Source: an uncultured Bilophila sp. (GTDB taxonomy: Bacteria > Desulfobacterota > Desulfovibrionia > Desulfovibrionales > Desulfovibrionaceae). From it: 64,000 bases of DNA. The translations under genes and the position numbers were made by a program. The notes under the pieces are model-generated. The model ran no database searches and was not told the DNA's origin. It worked only from the letters and a program-made list of their open reading frames with translations. The stretch lies in assembly GCA_910585945.1 (NCBI GenBank), contig CAJUHZ010000003.1:4240-68239 (forward strand). The letters run 5' to 3'. This document shows, in pieces, positions 650-57,560 of the stretch (the stretch's first letter is position 1; each line of letters starts with the position of its first letter).

Positions 650-1921
650 ATGTCAGCCATTCGAAAGAGCCTGCTGCAACTCATGTTTTCGGGATCCTGC
701 ATGCGCCGGTGGAACGACAAGCTCCGCCCGGTGGAGCTGTACGAAATCGACAAGCAGGCGCACAAGATGATTGTGGCCTGGATGCTCACGCTGCTGAACA
801 GCCGGGAGCCGGACGCCGCCAGGGATATCGATCTCCAATATGAGGTGGTGGAGGGCGGCCTTTTCGATTACCTCTACCGGCTGGTCATCACCGACATCAA
901 GCCGCCCGTATTCTATAAAATCTGTGAAAACAGGCAGGACCGCGCCAAGCTTACGGAATGGGTGCTCGGCGAACTCCGCCCGGTGGTGGAGCCGCTGAAC
1001 GCCGGCTTCTGGGAGCGCCTCCGCGCCTATCACGGCGAACGCGATCGCTCCGGCCTTGCCGACCGCATCCTGCGCGCCGCGCACCTCTACGCTTCGGGCT
1101 GGGAATACAACGTCATCCGGCCGTTCAACGCCTTTGACGAGGAGGCGGACTACATCGCCGGCTCGTTCGTCTCCCAGCTTGGCGAAATGAAAGATCTCAA
1201 GGGGATGGACGATCTCATGGCCGGCGAAAACTTTTTCAGCGACGGACCTTCGGCCCTGGGGCGTTTCGCGCGGCTGTGCGGTCAGCTCCGCTTTCAGATC
1301 CGTTGGGCGGAAACCTCGCGCATTCCGGAAACTTCCGTGCTTGGTCACATGTTTCTGGTAGGGGGCTACGCCTATTTTTGCAGCCTTGTCGTCGGGGCCT
1401 GCCGGGCGCGCAGCGTCAACAATTTCTTTGCCGGGCTTTTTCATGACTTGCCGGAACTTCTGACGCGCGACATCATCACCCCCGTCAAGCGTTCGGTGGA
1501 TCAACTGCCCGCGCTGATCCGCGCCTACGAGCTTGAGGAACTGGAAACGCGCGTCTTCGGCCCTCTGCAAGCGGCCGGGCTGGACGCTCTGGCGCTCCGG
1601 CTCCGGTATTACCTCGGGCTTCTCGGTGACGTGCAGTCGGAATTTGAGGAGACCGTGCGCGACGCGTCCGGCGTGCGCCGGCTTGTCTCCTTTGAGGATC
1701 TTCACGCCAACGGCAACGCCAATGCCCTTGATCCCAAGGACGGGCGGCTGCTCAAGGCGTGCGACAGTCTGGCCGCCTTCATGGAGGCGCACGCCTCCAT
1801 CCGCAATGGCGTGTCTTCCACCGGCCTGTACGAGGCATTGACCCGCATCCGCGCCAGCTTCCGCCAGCAACCGCCTTTGGGCGCGCTTTCGCTCGCCACG
1901 CTGCTCGCGGATTTTGATTAG
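650..1921 (+). CDS. HD-domain metal-dependent phosphohydrolase family protein
   Basis: ORF 590..1921. The ATG at 650 is preceded by GGAGGG. H...HD...D signature present (QAHKM; GLFHDLPELLTRDI). Good coding GC3 pattern. Confidence 0.75.
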   Translation: MSAIRKSLLQLMFSGSCMRRWNDKLRPVELYEIDKQAHKMIVAWMLTLLNSREPDAARDIDLQYEVVEGGLFDYLYRLVITDIKPPVFYKICENRQDRAKLTEWVLGELRPVVEPLNAGFWERLRAYHGERDRSGLADRILRAAHLYASGWEYNVIRPFNAFDEEADYIAGSFVSQLGEMKDLKGMDDLMAGENFFSDGPSALGRFARLCGQLRFQIRWAETSRIPETSVLGHMFLVGGYAYFCSLVVGACRARSVNNFFAGLFHDLPELLTRDIITPVKRSVDQLPALIRAYELEELETRVFGPLQAAGLDALALRLRYYLGLLGDVQSEFEETVRDASGVRRLVSFEDLHANGNANALDPKDGRLLKACDSLAAFMEAHASIRNGVSSTGLYEALTRIRASFRQQPPLGALSLATLLADFD

Positions 1922-2069
1922 AAGTCATTTCATGATTCGTATGAAATACTTCTACCGCCAGACGAAAGTCTGGCGCGGCGCGAAAAGCGCCGTGAATGAG
2001 CCAAAAACCACGTTTTTTGGCGAATGATCTTCATAATTCAGCCCAAAGGCTGAATTATGAAATGAGTTC
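1921..2069 (+). repeat. Family-2 multi-hairpin intergenic repeat, copy 2a (strand = orientation of the shared core GTGAnTGAGC..GATC)
   Basis: About 85% identical to 11443..11590. Hairpins: gaagtcatttcat/atgaaatacttc, gccagac-gaaa-gtctggc, ggcgc-gaaaa-gcgcc, core 1992..2029, and ttcataattcagcc-caaa-ggctgaattatgaa. Starts at the last base of the TAG stop of the HD gene. Confidence 0.85.
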
Positions 2070-2092
2070 TGGGGGCAGTCGGACTTTCCCGC

Positions 2093-2248
2093 CTAGTGTC
2101 TAATTGCAAAAATTCTGCGCAGAATTCTGCGCAGAATTTCTGCAGGATCGTTCGCGAAAAAACGTGGTTTTTCGCTCACTCACGGCGGCTACGCCGCCGT
2201 AAAACCCTTACGGGTTTTGTAGTGTCTACTTTTGCAAGTAGACACTAG
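2093..2248 (-). mobile_element. Family-1 MITE-like element, copy 1A (156 bp)
   Basis: Termini are CTAGTGTCTA ... TAGACACTAG. It equals copy 1B plus a 12-bp internal duplication (ctgcgcagaatt). No ORF. Its right terminus contains the uppP stop codon. Confidence 0.85.
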
Positions 2249-3045
2249 CGCAGGAAGATGTAGACCAGCGGCGCGAGCGCCAGGCGGTACCAGGCGAAGG
2301 GGCGCAGGGTCAGTCTGCCCACCAGGGCGATGAAGGCGCGAATGGCCAGCAGGGCAAAAAGAAAGGAAAACACCATGCCGGAGGCGAAAAGCGGCACGTC
2401 TTCGGGGGTGAAGAGCGCCCATGTTTTCAGCAGTTCGTAGCCGGTGGCGCCAATCATGATGGGCACGGCCGCAATGAAGGAATACTCCGCCGCGACGTCG
2501 CGCCGAGCGCCGAGCAGCATCCCTCCCATGATGGTTGACCCCGATCGCGAGAAGCCCGGCCACAGGGCAAGGCACTGGCACAGCCCTATGCCCAGGGCCA
2601 TGCGCGGCGTCACGTCGTCCAGGCTCAGGCACACGGGCGGGCGCGCCGCGCTGCGTTTTTCGATCAGCAGCATGAGAAGCGCGCCCACGGCCAGCGCCGC
2701 CGCCACGCTTGCCGGCGTGAACAGGGTCTTGATATGCGAGCGCAGGAGCAGTCCGGCCGCACAGGCGGGGAGGGTGGTCAGCAGGAGCAGGCCGATGCCC
2801 CGTTTCCCGGCAAGGCCGGAGCGTCCCTTTGGACACAGCAGCCCAAGAAAGCGCTGCCGGTACAGAACCGCCACCGCCAGAATGGAACCGAGCTGAATGG
2901 CCACGCTGAACGTGCTCGCCTTGTCCCCGGTGAAGCCGAGCAGATTCCCGGCAATGACCAGGTGGCCGGTGGAAGAAATGGGGAGGAACTCGGTAAGCCC
3001 CTGCACAGCGCCCATGATGAAGCCGACGGAAAGCCAGGAATCCAT
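2245..3045 (-). CDS. uppP: Undecaprenyl-diphosphate phosphatase
   Basis: 266 aa. N-terminus GAVQGLTEFLPISSTGHLVI is the BacA/UppP signature. Multi-pass membrane protein. Confidence 0.93.
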   Translation of the reverse strand: MDSWLSVGFIMGAVQGLTEFLPISSTGHLVIAGNLLGFTGDKASTFSVAIQLGSILAVAVLYRQRFLGLLCPKGRSGLAGKRGIGLLLLTTLPACAAGLLLRSHIKTLFTPASVAAALAVGALLMLLIEKRSAARPPVCLSLDDVTPRMALGIGLCQCLALWPGFSRSGSTIMGGMLLGARRDVAAEYSFIAAVPIMIGATGYELLKTWALFTPEDVPLFASGMVFSFLFALLAIRAFIALVGRLTLRPFAWYRLALAPLVYIFLR

Positions 3046-5383: not shown

Positions 5384-5551
5384 TGGGGTCAGCCCTCATT
5401 AAAATGCCGTCCGCAAAAAGCCGTTTTTTCCGGCCGGCAAGGGGCAGACATTGGGCGAAGCTGTATTGGACATGGTCAATGTTGGTCCTGCAACGCCGCC
5501 GGATGTAAAAAGGCGGCTATGCGGCAGGCGGGTTCATGGGGGCTGATCCCA
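5384..5551 (+). mobile_element. Family-3 MITE-like element, copy 3a
   Basis: About 85% identical to 26716..26876 and to the reverse complement of 46692..46866. Termini are ggggtcagccctcat.. / ..catgggggctgatccc. Overlaps the 3' end of holB. Confidence 0.8.
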
Positions 5552-6467: not shown

Positions 6468-8210
6468 TCACATGCCGACGGCAAGGCGTTTTTCCAGATC
6501 CGGGGCGGGGCTGACCAACAGCCCTTCCTCATATCTGTCCACGCGCGTTTCTCCGGCGCGGCCGCCCCGCAGGGGGTGAACGTGACCGGCCAGGGCGCGC
6601 ACCACGTCCACGGGGCTTTCATCCTTTTTCCAGCTTTTGAGAATGGCCAGGGAGCCGGCTTCCTGAAGCGTGGCGGCGGGGATTTCCTGCCCGGCATGAT
6701 CCCGGCGAACAATCACATGCGCGCCGGGGCCGCCGCCCACATGCAACCAGAGATCGTGCGGGGCCGCCAGCTTGAGCACGGCGGCATTGCCGGCGGCGTC
6801 ACGGCCGCGAAGGATGAGAAAGCCGTCGGAACTCCGGAAGAGCTGGACGTTTTTCGGCCAGTCCCGCCCCCCATTCCGCCCGTGTCGGCGGGCGCTCTCT
6901 GTTCCCGGCGAGAGCGTCCGGGGCGTCCGGGGCCTTCCGGACGCGCTGACGCCGGCTCCGGATCGGGCTGGCTTGCGTGTCCCTTCAAGCCCGGCGCGCG
7001 CACGCACGGCCGCCTGCTCGGCCTGTTCGAGTTCGGCGGCCACGCTTTCCCGCCGTCCGGCGAGCATGGCAAGGCCGCGTTTGCCCCGGCGCGCCGTATG
7101 GAAGAGCGCGGCCATATTCTCCCGCACGGTCAGGCGAGGGTTCAGGACGATCCGGCGGCCCTGATTCGCATCGGGCCTTTCCGTGCCGCGCGCGTCCGGG
7201 ACATGCAACTCCGGGGCGCCCATCTCCGGCGCAGGCGTTTCCGGGGCGGAGAGCGCCGGGGGCAGGAGCACGGCGGCCTGTTTTTCATCCGGGCCAAACA
7301 GGTAGAGACAGGTCTGGAGGGCCAGGGCGTCGTCTCCGGCCGCCTGCATTCGGCTCAGGCGGGCTTCTTCATCGTCAAGTTTGGCAAGCAGGCGTCTCAG
7401 TCGCGCGGCTTCAGCCAGATGGGGACGGGCGCGCTCCGCGCCCGCGCGATCGGCCAGATCGCGCAGGACGCGGCGTTCGCCGGCCAGGGCCGCCGCTTCG
7501 AGGGCGTTTTCCAGCACGCGTTCGTTCAGATTTCCGCCGGGGGCGGGTCGCTTGCGCCGCACCTCCTCAGGCAGGGGCCAGGCGAAAAGTTCGCGCCTGC
7601 CGGCTTCGTCTTCATAAAGGAAGAGATCGCCGCCGCCGGCTTCCAGATCAAGCAGCAATGCGGCCTGTTCTTCTGGCGGAAGCGATGCGAGCGTCCGGCG
7701 CAGGGCAGGCGTGAGCACTGGCCAGTTCCGCCAGTCTTCCCCTTGCGCGGCGCGCGCCTGTTCGGGGGACGGCCAGCGGGGCGGCGGGGGATCGTCCGGC
7801 GCGCGGCGCAGCAGCCGCACGCCTTCCCGCAGATCAAGGCAGAGCCACAGCCCGCCGCATTCTCCCTGTTCCGAATCCGGAATGCGCTCTTGCCCCGATG
7901 AGGGAAAATGCAGGTACAGACGTCGTTCCACCCAATCGTCGAAAGCGGCGATCACACGCCGGCCAGCGAGGTGCTTGCGCAGAAACATGACGGAAGCGGG
8001 CGGCTGGCTTCCGTCGGAAATCTTGTGATCGGCAAGAAAGAGGAAGGGGGTCTTGCGCCCAGCCTTCAAAAAGAGGTAACGCTTGCGGCCATGCCCGTAC
8101 AGGGTGAAGACAGTGACGTCCGCCCCGGGCTGGTGGATTTTTTCCAGCCGGCAACCGGTGAGCGCCGGCGTCAGCTCCGCACAGATCCGGCGAAAAACAT
8201 GACAATCCAT
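6468..8210 (-). CDS. NFACT-family (FbpA/RqcH-like, DUF814) RNA-binding protein
   Basis: 580 aa. N-terminal NFACT-N-like region. The C-terminal FRSSDGFLILRGRDAAGNAAVL...LWLHVGGGPGAHVIV matches the NFACT-R/DUF814 signature. Confidence 0.75.
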   Translation of the reverse strand: MDCHVFRRICAELTPALTGCRLEKIHQPGADVTVFTLYGHGRKRYLFLKAGRKTPFLFLADHKISDGSQPPASVMFLRKHLAGRRVIAAFDDWVERRLYLHFPSSGQERIPDSEQGECGGLWLCLDLREGVRLLRRAPDDPPPPRWPSPEQARAAQGEDWRNWPVLTPALRRTLASLPPEEQAALLLDLEAGGGDLFLYEDEAGRRELFAWPLPEEVRRKRPAPGGNLNERVLENALEAAALAGERRVLRDLADRAGAERARPHLAEAARLRRLLAKLDDEEARLSRMQAAGDDALALQTCLYLFGPDEKQAAVLLPPALSAPETPAPEMGAPELHVPDARGTERPDANQGRRIVLNPRLTVRENMAALFHTARRGKRGLAMLAGRRESVAAELEQAEQAAVRARAGLEGTRKPARSGAGVSASGRPRTPRTLSPGTESARRHGRNGGRDWPKNVQLFRSSDGFLILRGRDAAGNAAVLKLAAPHDLWLHVGGGPGAHVIVRRDHAGQEIPAATLQEAGSLAILKSWKKDESPVDVVRALAGHVHPLRGGRAGETRVDRYEEGLLVSPAPDLEKRLAVGM

Positions 8211-8905: not shown

Positions 8906-9010
8906 GGGGGTGGCCCTCATGAGAACGCTGTCCGCGAAAAGCCGACATTTTTCGGCCTGCTCGGTCAGGCAACGGGCGAAGCCGCCGGACATGCGGTTTG
9001 CCTGGCAAGG
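8906..9010 (+). repeat. Degenerate family-3-related fragment (3d)
   Basis: gggtggccctcatgagaacgctgtccgcgaaaagccgacatttttcggcc...gggcgaagc resembles the left half of family 3, but is diverged. Confidence 0.35.
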
Positions 9011-9062: not shown

Positions 9063-9206
9063 CTAGTGTCTAATTGCAAAAATTCTGCGCAGAATTTTTG
9101 CAGGATCGTTCGCGAAAAAACGTGGTTTTTCGCTCACTCACGGCGGCTACGCCGCCGCAAAACCCTTACGGGTTTTGTAGTGTCTACTTTTGCAAGTAGA
9201 CACTAG
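9063..9206 (-). mobile_element. Family-1 MITE-like element, copy 1B (144 bp)
   Basis: Termini are CTAGTGTCTA ... TAGACACTAG. Differs from the reverse complement of 35116..35259 at about 3 positions. Ends 32 bp before the glnN ATG. Confidence 0.88.
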
Positions 9207-9238: not shown

Positions 9239-11443
9239 ATGAGCGGAAGCAACGCCCGCAGCAATGCGATTCAGGCCATCACAAGTTACAAGTCCGAACC
9301 CGCACCTCTCAATTTCGCCGGCGCCAGACCCACCGAAATCTATGGGTGCAACGTGTTCAGCGACAAGGTGATGAAGGAGCGGCTGCCCCGCGTCGTGTAC
9401 CGTTCCCTCCGGGAAACCATCGAACGGGGGCGGCATCTTGATCCTTCCCTCGCGGACATTGTGGCCTCGGCCATGAAGGATTGGGCCATTGAAAAGGGCG
9501 CGACGCACTTCACCCATGTGTTTTACCCCCTGACCGGTCTGTCGGCGGAAAAGCACGACAGCTTTCTCAGCCCTGACGGCAGCGGCGGCGTGATCACCGA
9601 ATTCAGCGGAAAAATGCTCAGCCAGGGCGAGTCGGACGCCTCCAGTTTCCCTTCCGGCGGCTTGCGCAGCACTTTCGAGGCGCGGGGCTACACCGCCTGG
9701 GACGTGACAAGCCCGGCCTATCTCATGGAATACACGAGCGGCATTGTGCTGTGCATCCCCACGGCCTTTCTTTCCTGGACGGGGGTGGCGCTTGACCGCA
9801 AGACCCCGCTTCTGCGTTCCAATCAGGCGCTGAACAGGCAGGCCAGCCGCATCCTGCGTCTTTTCGACAAGAAGACGGATTTGCCCATCGTCTCTTTTGC
9901 CGGGCTGGAGCAGGAATTTTTTCTCATCGATCGCAATTTTGTCTTTGGCCGGCCGGATCTGCTCATTGCCGGGCGCACGCTGTTCGGAGCCAAGCCGGCC
10001 AAGGGGCAGGAGTTCGAGGATCAGTATTATGGCGTGATGCCGCGGCGCGTGCTGAGTTGCCTGAGCGAGACCGAGCTTGAACTGTACAAGCTCGGCATTC
10101 CCGTGCGAACCCGGCATAACGAAGTCGCTCCCAGCCAGTACGAGATCGCGCCGGTGTTCGAGGCGGGCAACCTTGCCATTGACCACAACCAGCTTATGAT
10201 GACGGTGCTGCGCAATGTGTCCAAACGGCACGGCCTGACCTGTCTGCTCCATGAAAAACCGTTCCTCGGCATCAACGGATCCGGCAAGCATCTCAATTAC
10301 TCCATCGGCAACGCCGAAGTGGGGAGCCTGTTCGACCCTGGCGACACGCCGCACGAGAACGCCATGTTTCTCGTTTTTCTGGTGGCGGCCATTCGCGGCC
10401 TGCACAAGTACGGGGGGCTGCTCCGGGCCACGGCCGCGGCGGCGTCCAACGATCACCGGCTGGGCGCCAATGAGGCCCCGCCCGCAATCATGTCCATGTT
10501 CCTTGGCGATCAGCTTGCGGATGTTCTGGAACAGATTCGCATCGGCAAGGTGCACGGTTCCAGGGGCAAACGGCTGATGAACGTCGGCGTGGACACGCTC
10601 CCGCCCCTGCCAGCCGATCCGGGCGATCGCAACCGCACCAGCCCCTTTGCCTTCACCGGCAACCGTTTTGAATTTCGGGCGCTCGGATCGAGCATGCCCG
10701 CCTCGGCCACCCAGGCGGTGCTCAACACCATCATGGCCGATTCGCTTGATTTCGCGGCCACGCGGCTGGAGCGTCTCACCGAGGGTGATCCGGGCAAACG
10801 CAACGCCGCCGTGCATACCCTGATCCAGGAGATTATGGAGGAACACAGCGCCGTCATCTTCAATGGCGACGGCTATTCCGAAGTCTGGCATCAGGAAGCC
10901 GAGCGCCGCGGCCTGCCCAACTACCGCACCACGCCCGAAGCCCTCATGGCCTATACCAGCCCCGACGCCATAGACCTGTACGGGCGGTACAATGTCCTGT
11001 CCCGCACGGAACTCAAGGCGCGGCAGGAAATCTACATCGAGCAGTACTGCAAGACGATCCGCACCGAGGCGAACCTGGTCATCCGCATGGCCCGAACCAT
11101 CGTCTACCCGGCCGGGCTTCGCTATCAGCGCGAACTGGCGGGCGTCTGCCTCGACATGTGCGCCATCAACAAGGAACTGAACCGCCCGAATCGGGAGCCG
11201 GACACGGCCTTGCTGGATCAGGTGGAAAGTCTGCTTGCGGCCTTGCGCAAGGCTGTCGACGGTCTGGAATCCGTGCTGGAAAACGGGGAGTACGCCAACA
11301 GCGTGCAGGAAGCCCATCATTACAGGGTGGAAGTGCTCCCGCGCATGGAGGAGGTTCGCGCTCTGGCCGACAGCCTGGAAACCCTGACCCCCGAAGATCT
11401 CTGGCCCCTGCCCAGTTATCAGGAGATGCTGTTCATCAAGTAG
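9239..11443 (+). CDS. glnN: Glutamine synthetase, type III
   Basis: 734 aa, the typical GSIII length. Contains the [12 protein letters not shown] catalytic motif and [22 protein letters not shown] lies upstream. Confidence 0.9.
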
Positions 11444-11590
11444 AAGTCATTTCATAATTCCCATGAAATGACTTTTCACGCCGGACGGGAGTCTGGCGCG
11501 GCCGAAAAGCGCCGTGAATGAAGCCCAAAAGACGTTTTTTGGCGAATGCTCTTCATCGTTCAGCCCCAGGGCTGGACGATGAAATGAGTT
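11443..11590 (+). repeat. Family-2 multi-hairpin intergenic repeat, copy 2b
   Basis: Same module order as 1921..2069. Starts at the last base of the glnN TAG stop. Core at 11514..11550. Confidence 0.85.
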
Positions 11591-11640
11591 GTAGAAAGGT
11601 GAACTGTGCCCCTGAGGGGAAGAGCAATAAAGGAGGCCGT

Positions 11641-12207
11641 ATGCCCGCAATCTCGTTTGATACGCTGGCCTATGCGAAAGAAGTGGAAGGCGCCGGTTTC
11701 ACCAGACAGCAGGCGGAAGCTTTTGCTTTGGCGCAAAAAAGACTTTTTCATGAGGTCATGTCCACAAGCGAACTGGCGACAAAGCTCGATCTGAACGATG
11801 TGCATACGGGGCTGAGTACTGAAATTCAGGACGTGCGCACGGAACTGAAGACCGAAATCCAGAACGTTCGCACGGAATTAAAGACTGAAATTCAGGAAGT
11901 ACGCACCGAACTGAAGACTGAGATCCAGAACGTTCGCACGGAATTAAAGACTGAAATTCAGGAAGTGCGCACCGAACTGAAGACTGAGATCCAGGACGTG
12001 CGTCTTGAAACCGAAAAGCTGCGCACGGATCTGAAAGCCGAGATCCAGGACGTTCGCCTTGAAACCGAAAAGCTGCGCACGGATCTCACGGAAAAGATGG
12101 AAGCCAACAAGCACGAAATCCTTAAGTGGATGCTGGGCACGGTTGTTGCGCAAACCGCGCTTATTGTCGCCGTCATCGGTGTGGCGATCGCGCTTGTGGT
12201 CAAATAG
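11641..12207 (+). CDS. DUF1640-family coiled-coil membrane-anchored protein with expanded tandem repeats
   Basis: ATG after AAAGGAGG. The N-terminus MPAISFDTLAYAKEVEGAGFTRQQAEAF and the C-terminus EILKWMLGTVVAQTALIVAVIGVAIALVVK fit the DUF1640 architecture. The centre consists of 11-aa and 18-aa repeats. Confidence 0.8.
   Translation: MPAISFDTLAYAKEVEGAGFTRQQAEAFALAQKRLFHEVMSTSELATKLDLNDVHTGLSTEIQDVRTELKTEIQNVRTELKTEIQEVRTELKTEIQNVRTELKTEIQEVRTELKTEIQDVRLETEKLRTDLKAEIQDVRLETEKLRTDLTEKMEANKHEILKWMLGTVVAQTALIVAVIGVAIALVVK
11821..12093 (+). repeat. In-frame tandem repeat array (5 x 33 bp + 2 x 54 bp) inside the DUF1640 gene
   Basis: Units encode EIQ(D/N/E)VRTELKT at 11821, 11854, 11887, 11920 and 11953, then EIQDVRLETEKLRTDL(KA/TE) at 11986 and 12040. 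Units 2+3 versus 4+5 form a 66-bp duplicate with 2 mismatches. Confidence 0.95.
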
Positions 12208-26715: not shown

Positions 26716-26876
26716 GGGGGCAGCCCTCATGAAAACGCCGGTCGCGAAAGGCCGTTTTTTCCGGCCGGCAAGGGGCAAAGATTGGGCGAAGTTGTATTGA
26801 ACATGCGTCAATGCTGACCCTGCAACGTCGCCGGACGCCAAAAGGCGGCTATGCGGCAGGCGGGTTCATGAGGAAG
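26716..26876 (+). mobile_element. Family-3 MITE-like element, copy 3b
   Basis: Collinear with 5384..5551, including the identical segment ggcggctatgcggcaggcgggttcatg. Confidence 0.8.
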
Positions 26877-26897
26877 GATTTTTGTGATAAGACACCG

Positions 26898-26931
26898 GAA
26901 GCCATTTCATCATTTCATATGAAATGGCTTC
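26898..26931. repeat. Stand-alone TTTCAT/ATGAAA-class hairpin
   Basis: gaagccatttcat - catttcat - atgaaatggcttc (13-bp stem). Preceded by aagacaccgg, which resembles the family-1 terminus. Confidence 0.7.
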
Positions 26932-27024
26932 TCCCTTCAGGCGTGATCCGGCGGGGCTGAAAAACGCCGCACCTGAGCCAGAAACAATAAAAACGCTGTT
27001 TCTGTTTGTCCCGTATGGGCGCAA

Positions 27025-27877: not shown

Positions 27878-28029
27878 ACAACCTCCCTGTCGTCTTTCCG
27901 GGCGCGTTCGGGCCACGGCGCGTTCGGGCGCATGGCGATCGGGGCGGATTGACGGCAGCAACGTGCTTTTGGGCGGAATCCCGGCCAGCGCGGCCGGACG
28001 GCGCGCCTTTGAAACGCGCGCGCTTCAGT

Positions 28030-28054
28030 TCATTTCATATGAATCATGAAATGA
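28030..28054. repeat. TTTCAT/ATGAAA-class hairpin
   Basis: tcatttcat - atgaatc - atgaaatga (9-bp stem) in the tatA upstream region. Confidence 0.55.
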
Positions 28055-28234
28055 TTTCCAAGGAAAGCATTCCTATAGCGTGGGCGCTCCGGCCAGGTCA
28101 AGCGGCCTGCCGTTTCGTTCTTCCTGTCCGTCCTGTACGCTGGTCAGGCCGCTGCGCCGCCTCACCCGTTGCGCCCGAGGCCGCATCAGGCTACATGTCT
28201 TGAGCCGGGGGCAGCCCGCCGGCAAGGATACGCC

Positions 28235-30271: not shown

Positions 30272-30554
30272 GCAGGGGCGGGGGGCGCTCCGGAGATTCC
30301 CTTTCTTGTTTTTTTGGGGTAAGCGTTCAATAATGCTTTCCGCACGTCTCCATACGGCGGGCGCACGGCGGTTTGCCGAAAAACAGTCTTTTCATTGCGC
30401 CCCGGCAGGGGCCTGCCGGCGCGTGTCGGTTCTGGAGCCGTTTGGCTTTCAAAATGTTCTGGCGGCCGCGAGAGCAACCGCCCTGCCGAAGGAACGGAAG
30501 CGACCGGAGCGCGCCCGCTCGGGCAAGGCGGATTACGGGCATCGACAGCAATGC

Positions 30555-30629
30555 AAACCGCGTTTTTTCGTGAACGATCCTGCACAACAAGTCACGCAAA
30601 CCATGCAGGCATGTTGTGCAATCAGACCC
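30555..30629 (+). repeat. Variant copy of the shared repeat core with a different hairpin
   Basis: aaaccgcgttttttcgtgaacgatcc + tgcacaaca...tgttgtgca + atcagaccc. The flanks match family 1 (cgttttttcgcgaacgatcc ... atcagacac), but the stem sequence has been replaced. Confidence 0.65.
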
Positions 30630-35115: not shown

Positions 35116-35259
35116 CTAGTGTCTACTTGCAAAAGTAGACACTACAAAACCCGTAAGGGTTTTGCGGCGGCGTAGCCGCCGTGAGTGAGCGAAAAACCAC
35201 GTTTTTTCGCGAACGATCCTGCAAAAATTCTTCGCAGAATTTTTGCAATCAGACACTGG
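35116..35259 (+). mobile_element. Family-1 MITE-like element, copy 1C (inverted relative to 1A/1B)
   Basis: Termini are ctagtgtctac...cagacactgg. About 3 mismatches to copy 1B. Confidence 0.88.
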
Positions 35260-35366
35260 CGAGACATTGTGAAATCGGAGAGCGCCGGGGGGGGGGAAGA
35301 TACGAAAAGTGCTGCTCCCCTCCGGAAAAACTTGCCAGCCGGTGCGGGCTTGTGTAGGCTGACTCG

Positions 35367-46691: not shown

Positions 46692-46866
46692 TTAGGGTCA
46701 GCCCTCATGAAAACGCCTGCTGCAAAGCCGTCTTTTTGCGTCCGGCGGCGTTGCAAGGCGAACATTGACCTTGCTATGTTCAATACAGCTTCGCCCAATG
46801 TTTGCCCCTTGCCGGCCGGAAAAAACGGCTTTTCGTGGACGGCATTTTGATGAGGGCTGACCCTAA
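46692..46866 (-). mobile_element. Family-3 MITE-like element, full-length copy 3c (175 bp)
   Basis: Terminal inverted repeats TTAGGGTCAGCCCTCATGAAAA.GCC / GGCATTTTGATGAGGGCTGACCCTAA. The interior is collinear with the reverse complement of 3a and 3b. Confidence 0.88.
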
Positions 46867-56861: not shown

Positions 56862-57425
56862 ATGTTTTTTCTTCTGGGCGGCAACGAGAAAAAGACGCGC
56901 AAAGCGCCGGCCAAGGCTGACGGTGTTTCCGAGCGTGTGAAAGAGCTGTTTCTGAGCGGGCGTTTCCCCGTGGTCACGACAGATCGGGTTGAAGGAAAGG
57001 AAATATCCAAGGTGCTCGGCCTGGTGTGCTGCCGCGGCTATGACTCCGAAGAGGCTTTTTTCGGCATGGCTTCCCGCGCGGTGAACAAGGGCGCGCACGC
57101 CATTGTCGGCTATATTGAAAATGTGGCCTTCCACCCCGACGGGAGCAAGTATTTCTCCTGCTACGGCACGGCGGTCATGTTTGAATGGGAGCCGGAGGAA
57201 AAATTCGGGGCGGCCGCGCTGCTTTCCCTGAAGCGTCCCCAGGTCTCCGGCGTTCAGGAAGAAGTCCGGCAGGACTTGTTGCGTGCCGCCTCCATGCGGG
57301 ACGAGAGCGTGCCGCCCCTTCGTCCGGGGATGCGCGTCAGCAAAGTGACGCCGCAAGACGACCTGGGCCTTGATCTTGAGGATTCGCTGGCCGAAGAAAT
57401 CGCCCCCCGCCAACGGCGCGGATAG
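56862..57425 (+). CDS. Hypothetical protein with YbjQ/UPF0145-like core and acidic C-terminal extension
   Basis: ATG follows GAGGAGGG. GAHAIVGYIENVAFHPDGSKYFSCYGTAVMFE resembles the UPF0145 C-terminal pattern. Motif-level evidence only. Confidence 0.5.
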   Translation: MFFLLGGNEKKTRKAPAKADGVSERVKELFLSGRFPVVTTDRVEGKEISKVLGLVCCRGYDSEEAFFGMASRAVNKGAHAIVGYIENVAFHPDGSKYFSCYGTAVMFEWEPEEKFGAAALLSLKRPQVSGVQEEVRQDLLRAASMRDESVPPLRPGMRVSKVTPQDDLGLDLEDSLAEEIAPRQRRG

Positions 57426-57560
57426 AGCAATTTTTCATGAAAAATTGCTCTGGCGGACGCGTATAAGCGGACGCCAGCGCCGTAATGAGCTTGAAAACCA
57501 CGTTTTTTCGCGAACGATCCTGCAAAAATTCTTCGCAGAATTTTTGCAATCAGACACCAG
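57423..57560 (+). repeat. Mosaic repeat (family-2-type left half + family-1-type right half), copy 1D
   Basis: Order: TAG stop, then hairpin gagcaattttt-catg-aaaaattgctc, then ctggcg...cgccag, then core gtaatgagcttgaaaaccacgttttttcgcgaacgatcc, then the 28-bp palindrome tgcaaaaattcttcgcagaatttttgca, then atcagacaccag. Confidence 0.8.

Follow-up and report, generated by a model that had tools for sequence, protein, structure and literature searches.

Probable IS630/Tc1-mariner-type MITE families built around a common 38-nt hairpin core in gut Desulfovibrionaceae

RUP, a 107-bp miniature inverted-repeat transposable element (MITE) of pneumococcus, is short, non-autonomous and intergenic, inserts at TA, has IS630-like inverted repeats, and is thought to be mobilised by IS630-Spn1 (PMC2229807). 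IS630/Tc1-mariner elements themselves insert into TA and duplicate it (PMC2170065), as IS630 and ISY100 do, and IS630 prefers the TA within 5'-CTAG-3', to judge from the title of Tenzen & Ohtsubo (1991), cited in PMC2170065. The Correia elements (NEMIS) of Neisseria measure ~100-155 bp and combine inverted repeat ends, a conserved internal motif (an IHF site in the 155-bp form), hairpin-forming transcripts and length variants (PMC2229807). The bacterial interspersed mosaic elements (BIMEs) of enterobacteria, known together with the repetitive extragenic palindromic (REP) sequences, consist of palindromic modules in mosaic arrangement between genes, frequently at gene 3' ends. They are treated as a class separate from MITEs (PMC2229807). 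Likenesses to all of these are found in a set of repeats in a 64,000-nt stretch of DNA from an uncultured Bilophila sp. (hereafter the window), among them an element at 1921-2069 that belongs to what is here called family 2. The repeats are most probably non-autonomous DNA transposons of the IS630/Tc1-mariner type, that is, MITEs, which make up several families (1, 2, 3, 4 and others) in gut Desulfovibrionaceae. Although the kind of element is already known, these MITE families of gut Desulfovibrionaceae, relatives of Bilophila and Desulfovibrio, are themselves undescribed.

The window elements are likewise short, non-autonomous and intergenic, with insertion at TA and IS630-like inverted repeats, but they are longer (~135-150 bp), have a five-hairpin interior that is not derived from an insertion sequence (IS), form several families with different ends around one core, show a strict CTAG context in family 1, and reside in a GC-rich Desulfovibrionaceae host. 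They resemble the Correia elements in size, inverted repeat ends, conserved internal motif, hairpin formation and length variation; however, five separate hairpins take the place of one long end-to-end stem, and no IHF consensus was found in the core by eye. Correia elements duplicate TA, as do the elements described here. To our knowledge, no parent IS is known for Correia elements, whereas one was identified here for family 1.

Each element is made of hairpins throughout and has no coding capacity. The terminal inverted repeats begin with G after the flanking TA (TA-GTGTCTAMTTGCAAAA in family 1 and TA-GAASTCATTTCAT in family 2). In family 1 the left repeat GTGTCTACTTGCAAAA matches the reverse complement of the right repeat GTGTCTAATTGCAAAA, and in family 2 the left repeat GAAGTCATTTCAT matches GAACTCATTTCAT on the right. 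Family 1 is bounded throughout as C-TA-GTGTCTAMTTGCAAAA ... TTTTGCAATTAGACAC-TA-G, and family 2 as TA-GAAGTCATTTCAT ... ATGAAATGAGTTC-TA-G. The interior consists of five palindromes in series. The first is a fold-back copy made from the left end; two GC hairpins come next, then the 38-nt core, and last a long hairpin extending into the right end. Family 4 runs from TA-GAGCAATTTTTCAT to AAAATGCTC, and at least three more architectures (family 3 in L019, L021, L029 and L030; a second in L031 and L020; a third in L002 and L070) combine GAAG-type ends and other hairpins with the same core. When all copies are aligned, terminal inverted repeats and TA flanks are present in each. The 64-kb window has seven dispersed copies or remnants, which are listed here together with the solo terminal hairpins.

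1921-2069, plus strand: family-2 MITE copy, the element first noted (H1 1921-1952, H2 1956-1975, H3 1976-1992, core 1992-2029, H5 2030-2061, right inverted repeat 2057-2069)
2096-2245, minus strand: family-1 MITE copy, TA at 2094-2095 and 2246-2247
9066-9203, minus strand: family-1 MITE copy, TA at 9064-9065 and 9204-9205; glutamine synthetase III starts 33 nt downstream
11443-11591, plus strand: decayed family-2 MITE copy, left TA 11441-11442, right TA 11592-11593
30531-30629, plus strand: remnant with the right half-core, a variant long hairpin and a family-1-type right end
35119-35256, plus strand: family-1 MITE copy, left TA 35117-35118, right flank decayed to TG
57425-57557, plus strand: chimeric element, family 4 on the left up to the 5' core half and family 1 on the right from the 3' core half
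26897-26933, no strand given: solo terminal hairpin of family-2/3 type, GGAAGCCATTTCAT..ATGAAATGGCTTC
28029-28060, no strand given: solo TTTCAT/ATGAAA terminal hairpin fragment

The interval 1921-2069 is exactly the element minus its flanking dinucleotides. On its left, TA (1919-1920) belongs to the TAG stop with which an HD-domain gene ends at 1921; on its right, the dinucleotide is TG (2070-2071) in the window and TA in strains L170-175. Similarly, the BacA gene (2245-3045, minus strand) has a TAG stop whose G comes from one end of the copy at 2096-2245, the left TA of the copy at 11443-11591 belongs to the native TAG stop of glutamine synthetase III, and the left TA of the chimera at 57425-57557 lies within the TAG stop (57423-57425) of a YbjQ-like gene.

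Comparison between strains indicates that family 1 is recently mobile. A look-up of the BacA protein encoded beside the family-2 copy gave contigs of the same species, and in these (L080/L081 and L170-175) the family-2 copy is present and the family-1 copy at 2096-2245 is absent. The empty site reads ..CTGCGC-TA-AGCTGG.. and the occupied site of the window ..CTGCGC-TA-[150 bp]-TA-GGCGGG.., which is a duplication of the TA target. The BacA gene stops with TAA in the empty allele and with TAG in the occupied allele, the G being supplied by the element end. A second family-1 copy, at 9066-9203, is absent from L082 and L180-type strains. Apart from the missing element, both family-1 sites are nearly identical to those of the window. 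The family-2 copy at 11443-11591 is missing from the P0122 sister lineage, in which 54 unrelated bases come after TAG; in the window the copy starts exactly at the native stop, the C-terminus ..YQEMLFIK being common to all glutamine synthetase III orthologues. An orthologous old insertion beside the BacA gene was sought in L024, but the element there lies on the other side of the gene and is not orthologous.

A parent-type IS for family 1 was found by scanning viral contigs with the family-1 end. It is a 1119-bp IS in L084, TA-GTGTCTACTTGCAAAA...CGCAATTAGACAC-TA, with one open reading frame (ORF) of 356 aa that matches the Pfam domains DDE_3 (2.5e-21), HTH_32, HTH_23 and HTH_29. Its relatives in L162 and L163 (81-84% identity) have the same ends and C-TA-G flanks, and homologues at 63-64% identity carry the NCBI name 'IS630 family transposase'. 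Family 1 therefore has the TA target and TA duplication of IS630/Tc1-mariner elements and the ends of an autonomous DDE_3/HTH IS. Unlike IS630 and ISY100, the window elements have no transposase, and those of family 1 share only 18-20 nt at each end with the IS; neither their hairpins nor their core derive from it. The transposase of family 2 would, we infer, be of the same type, and the ends to expect on a matching IS630-family gene are GTGTCTAMTTGCA or GAAGTCATTTCAT, the latter being of family-2 type. Scanned with the family-2 end, the viral contigs gave 76 matches, nearly all of them chance matches in AT-rich contigs and one (L142) an unrelated MITE; scanned with the core, they gave none. 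The window and the loci surrounding core copies, those of this species among them, contained no full-length IS, and neither element had a match in the plasmid collection. A literature search on Desulfovibrio MITEs or IS630 returned nothing specific. The MITE in L142, a viral/metagenome contig, is 133 bp long, is present at 10634-10770 and 11447-11580 with flanks GTGAC-TA...TA-GTGAC, and has no core; its ends TAGAAGCCATCTCATAAATG equal the family-3 left end.

One genome per species was scanned with the 3' core half, which yielded 37 loci. About 27 of these are true elements, all in gut Desulfovibrionaceae (Desulfovibrio metagenome-assembled genomes (MAGs), Mailhella, and the isolate SGI.169), and the rest are chance matches in unrelated taxa. 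A metagenome scan added 15 true copies. Overall, copies are present in ~10 Desulfovibrionaceae genomes and MAGs, and their presence or absence differs between strains.

The core is the sole module common to the families, the other modules being unalignable between them. The preliminary description had proposed a core of ~40 nt common to families 1 and 2, and this was borne out: the core is 38 nt long and is found exactly at four sites, as the family-2 form GTGAATGAGCCAAAAACCACGTTTTTTGGCGAATGATC at 1992-2029(+) and as the family-1 form GTGAGTGAGCGAAAAACCACGTTTTTTCGCGAACGATC at 2146-2183(-), 9104-9141(-) and 35181-35218(+), with none expected in shuffled sequence for either form. Three of the at least seven core copies counted at that stage are degenerate or partial, since the family-2 core at 11514 has decayed, showing an indel and several mismatches, 57482 is intact only in the 3' 26 nt, and 30555 is the right half-core only. 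The module order that had been given for 1921-2069 and 11443-11591 (terminal hairpin, two GC hairpins, core, 14-bp hairpin, tail) is correct, and the view of the families as mosaics of hairpin modules around one core also stands.

The core has the form GCS-A5-N6-T6-SGC, and tandem G.A mismatches lengthen its stem. Of the 38 positions, 4 differ between families 1 and 2, and these form two complementary pairs, an arrangement that four random differences would take with a probability of ~2e-4. Pair 11:28 is G:C in family 1 and C:G in family 2 (GCG/CGC versus GCC/GGC), so the compensatory swap reported earlier is real; pair 5:34, which had been missed, has G:C in family 1 against A:T in family 2. 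The copy L007, with A:T at 5:34 but G:C at 11:28, shows that each pair varies independently of the other. In family 4 the core stem GCTTGAAAA/TTTTCAAGC pairs at nine positions, and a hand alignment to the family-2 counterpart GCCAAAAA/TTTTTGGC adds three further compensated pairs. In the subfamily of L013, L028, L064, L035 and L176 the tandem G.A mismatches have become Watson-Crick pairs, and the hairpin reaches -26 kcal/mol. The ordinary core hairpin by itself is weak (~-7 to -9 kcal/mol, z between -0.2 and -2). Inspection by eye of the core for IHF, sigma-54 and CRP/FNR-type motifs gave no convincing match. As to the role of the core, the best guess is a requirement in cis for moving so short an element, in which case the core would be retained because propagating copies need it.

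RNA folding predicts five consecutive hairpins per element, with z of ~-10 for family 2 and ~-8 for family 1, equal on both strands. That pairing in the hairpins is maintained had been argued from the core, and the evidence is far stronger in the flanking hairpins. In the 19 distinct copies of family 1, 19 of 52 flanking-hairpin pairs change on both sides and 96.6% of cells are paired; shuffles gave 6.1 +/- 1.8 such pairs (0 of 500 reached 19) and slid controls 1-7. In the 12 copies of family 2, 5 of 51 pairs change on both sides, a number reached by 3 of 500 shuffles. Covariation in the collected copies, which had been suggested as a check, is thus beyond that of shuffles in both families. 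As for the orientation of elements relative to the flanking gene, another suggested check, both orientations were found. Hairpin-templated correction, or a dimeric DNA-binding protein, would likewise be expected to give paired changes in a palindrome.

Several observations weigh against the MITE interpretation or against parts of it. The IS with family-1 ends is known from a viral/metagenome contig and not from the genome of this organism, and for family 2, to which the first element belongs, the scan of the viral contigs found no parent IS. Two substitutions lie beside the empty BacA site, and the empty site for the copy at 9066-9203 (L082) has CCA in place of the expected TA. At the only empty site of family 2 the DNA on the right side has diverged, and the right boundary is not mapped to the base. 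The core sits off-centre: the left end is ~80-90 bp away and the right end ~57-60 bp. Its stem is nearly invariant within a family, although the 3' core half was fixed by the search pattern and the apparent invariance is partly due to ascertainment. Additionally, Tc1/IS630 transposases work on double-stranded ends and form no hairpin intermediates (PMC2170065), and known Tc1/IS630 transposase biology does not explain the conserved internal hairpins.

Other explanations were weighed. One is that the hairpins and the core serve the host as RNA: read-through transcripts at gene 3' ends would fold and protect the upstream mRNA, terminate or process transcripts, or yield a small RNA, and the host would keep the hairpins, as reported for REP, ERIC and Correia. 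The very stable folds, the abundance of compensatory changes and the many copies directly past stop codons or between convergent genes all fit this reading, and RNA-level effects of bacterial MITEs are documented (PMC2229807). The conserved core mismatches are tandem G.A in a Py-GA-Pu context on the strand shown and would be pyrimidine-pyrimidine mismatches on the complement. Tandem G.A in this context is stable in single strands. However, G.U pairs are symmetric between the strands (130 versus 147 over 43 copies), elements occur in both orientations relative to the adjacent gene, and single substitutions in core stems give A.C and not G.U on the element plus strand. Old fixed copies decay, core included, and the core hairpin alone is weak. 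A search of Rfam at gathering and permissive thresholds found no relevant family: only a tRNA passes gathering in the window, and the best sub-threshold matches on 1880-2280 are far under the cut-offs. No promoter-like site came up in a promoter/terminator scan, and its two marginal terminator-like sites did not exceed the number in shuffles. The lack of G.U strand bias and the decay of old copies favour a constraint at the level of DNA or propagation over one on a strand-specific RNA, and a host function in RNA is unlikely. A related and still less likely possibility is that the core is functional cargo, a sequence-specific regulatory hairpin with conserved tandem G.A pairs that acts through a protein or as RNA, was captured independently by at least four MITE families with different ends, and was spread to gene 3' ends by insertion targeted to stop codons. 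If true, the core would amount to a mobile regulatory module of 3'-UTRs or intergenic regions in gut Desulfovibrionaceae.

It is also conceivable, if doubtful, that the pairing reflects no function at all. The core would then be common to the families through exchange of segments, either in recombination or when adjacent elements transpose as a composite, and the arms would stay complementary through hairpin-templated correction (quasi-palindrome template switching or repair) and not through selection. Recombination from core to core is seen directly (below), elements often adjoin or enter each other's flanking TA (window 1921-2245; L073, L016), and there is no strand bias. Moreover, in copies whose left end differs from the right inverted repeat (L023, L025, L072, L077), the two arms of the terminal hairpin are still complementary to each other, which binding of transposase does not explain. 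On the other hand, with only 4 of 38 core positions different between families whose other modules are unalignable, neutral exchange would need to be both recent and repeated, in several genera; most lineages conserve the G.A mismatches and do not correct them; and variants such as GTGTCTGCTT/AAGCAGACAC are common to copies in different genomes and are therefore properties of propagating lineages. It seems that the constraint acts on propagating lineages or that pairing is kept by hairpin-templated correction. Lastly, the likeness to REP/BIME elements, put forward in the preliminary description, was pursued as a mechanism, in which clustered extragenic palindromes are spread by an IS200/IS605-like tyrosine transposase (RAYT, REP-associated tyrosine transposase) and bound by gyrase or IHF. 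The elements are indeed intergenic, palindromic and mosaic, and some family-1 hairpins contain a GTAG motif. REP/BIME elements, which are associated with RAYT tyrosine transposases, lack terminal inverted repeats and do not duplicate TA. The window elements have terminal inverted repeats, TA flanks, a family-1 polymorphism with TA duplication at the empty site, and, in family 1, ends identical to those of an IS630-family IS; they form a fixed unit rather than a variable cluster of one REP in alternating orientation, and their core has no IHF consensus match by eye. The REP/BIME mechanism is already contradicted for family 1 and is very improbable overall; the repeats are a set of IS630-type MITEs, neither a REP/BIME system nor a known RNA.

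Comparative analysis of the element at 57423 documents how chimeras arise. This locus had been described as a hybrid of a family-2-type left half and a family-1-type right half; the right half is indeed family 1, but the left half is not family 2 proper and belongs to the related family 4. In L176 a complete family-4 element is followed directly by a complete family-1 element, right after the same YbjQ-like gene. Relative to this arrangement, the window and L177 have a 149-bp deletion between the cores of the two adjacent elements, with the junction in AAAACC-CGTTTTT. Since L176 retains both elements undeleted, the mosaic is the product of recombination at the shared core. In L178 a 24-bp solo family-1 terminal hairpin, with TA on each side, comes after family 4. 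Solo terminal hairpins (L178 1764-2033; window 26897-26933 and 28029-28060) consist of the left inverted repeat and its fold-back copy, the one in L178 being flanked by TA on both sides; they are either minimal transposable units of 24-35 bp or what is left after a deletion from the fold-back arm to the right end.

The choice of target explains much of the position of the elements relative to genes. CTAG occurs 8 times in the window (2093, 2245, 9063, 9203, 17146, 26573, 35116 and 36751), whereas composition would predict 220 occurrences and a Markov model 24. Family-1 ends account for five of the eight, and of the other three, two are stop codons. Among 43 distinct elements, 16 have one end, which may be either end in either orientation, on the TAG stop of an ORF with coding-type GC content at third codon positions. 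Outside elements 14% of all TAGs end such an ORF, and a CTAG gives two chances, so the excess of elements at stop codons is only modest; a first reading of the association as strong selection was dropped for this reason. Because CTAG is very rare and TAG is mostly a stop, the association mostly follows from target choice. All families start with G after TA, and therefore TAG is rebuilt at insertion and the protein is unchanged. The flanking TA often reads CA or TG (CCAG/CTGG) and is polymorphic between strains, and, together with the depletion of CTAG, these decayed flanks suggest an active process that removes CTAG. The CCAG/CTGG pattern resembles CTAG loss of the very-short-patch type, an idea only.

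Several further observations concern the elements and their surroundings. Downstream of the BacA gene in L166, L167 and L171, which are of the same species, different DNA is joined exactly at element ends; in L167 the family-1 end is cut after GTGTCTA and followed by foreign DNA, with a gene for a Mu-type transposase domain ~1.4 kb on. These junctions are either real rearrangements at repeats or assembly chimeras. In the remnant at 30531-30629 the left half is replaced by ATCGACAGCAAYGCAAACC, and the same sequence is found in L020. There (7580-7720) a ~80-nt insertion splits the core between GAGCC and AAAACC, with ATCGAC repeats at its bounds, and the window remnant at 30555 (30531-30575) carries the 3' end of this insert. 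A 12-bp tandem duplication AATTCTGCGCAG lengthens the stem of the family-1 long hairpin (window 9075-9100 versus L078; also 2105-2140) and is polymorphic between strains at the same locus. A run of ~10 G lies at 35286-35296, 30 nt past the family-1 copy at 35119-35256. A further MITE-like repeat family, with inverted ends TCAGCCCTCATSAAAAYGCC and no Rfam match, is present at 46695-46860 (both ends), 5385-5541, 26716-26873 and 8906-8995, the copies at 5385 and 26716 being 88% alike over ~157 nt. The gene downstream of glutamine synthetase has seven tandem 33-nt (11-residue) repeats at 11785-12069, and its product varies in length (131, 199 and 218 residues in L180, L181 and L082).

Overall, the MITE interpretation suggests the following course. 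A full-length IS630-family IS would supply transposase in trans, which would excise the element and insert it into TA, preferably within CTAG for family 1 and TAG for family 2. Many insertions hit the stop codon of a gene, where the terminal G of the element remakes TAG. The core would likely be a cis element at the level of DNA that brings the two ends of so short an element together, by A-tract/T-tract bending, hairpin extrusion or a bound protein. It doubles as a patch of homology for recombination into chimeras.

The findings thus add undescribed MITE families, together with a parent-type IS630-family IS for one of them, and they give a reason for breaks or mis-joins at element sites in metagenome assemblies of these organisms. 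Chimeric families can arise by recombination at the shared core, and the conserved core and covarying hairpins pose the question of what short Tc1/IS630-type elements need in cis. For the gut Desulfovibrionaceae, the elements offer a natural example in which specificity for TA in CTAG or TAG, combined with extreme scarcity of CTAG, funnels insertions into stop codons without damage to the gene.

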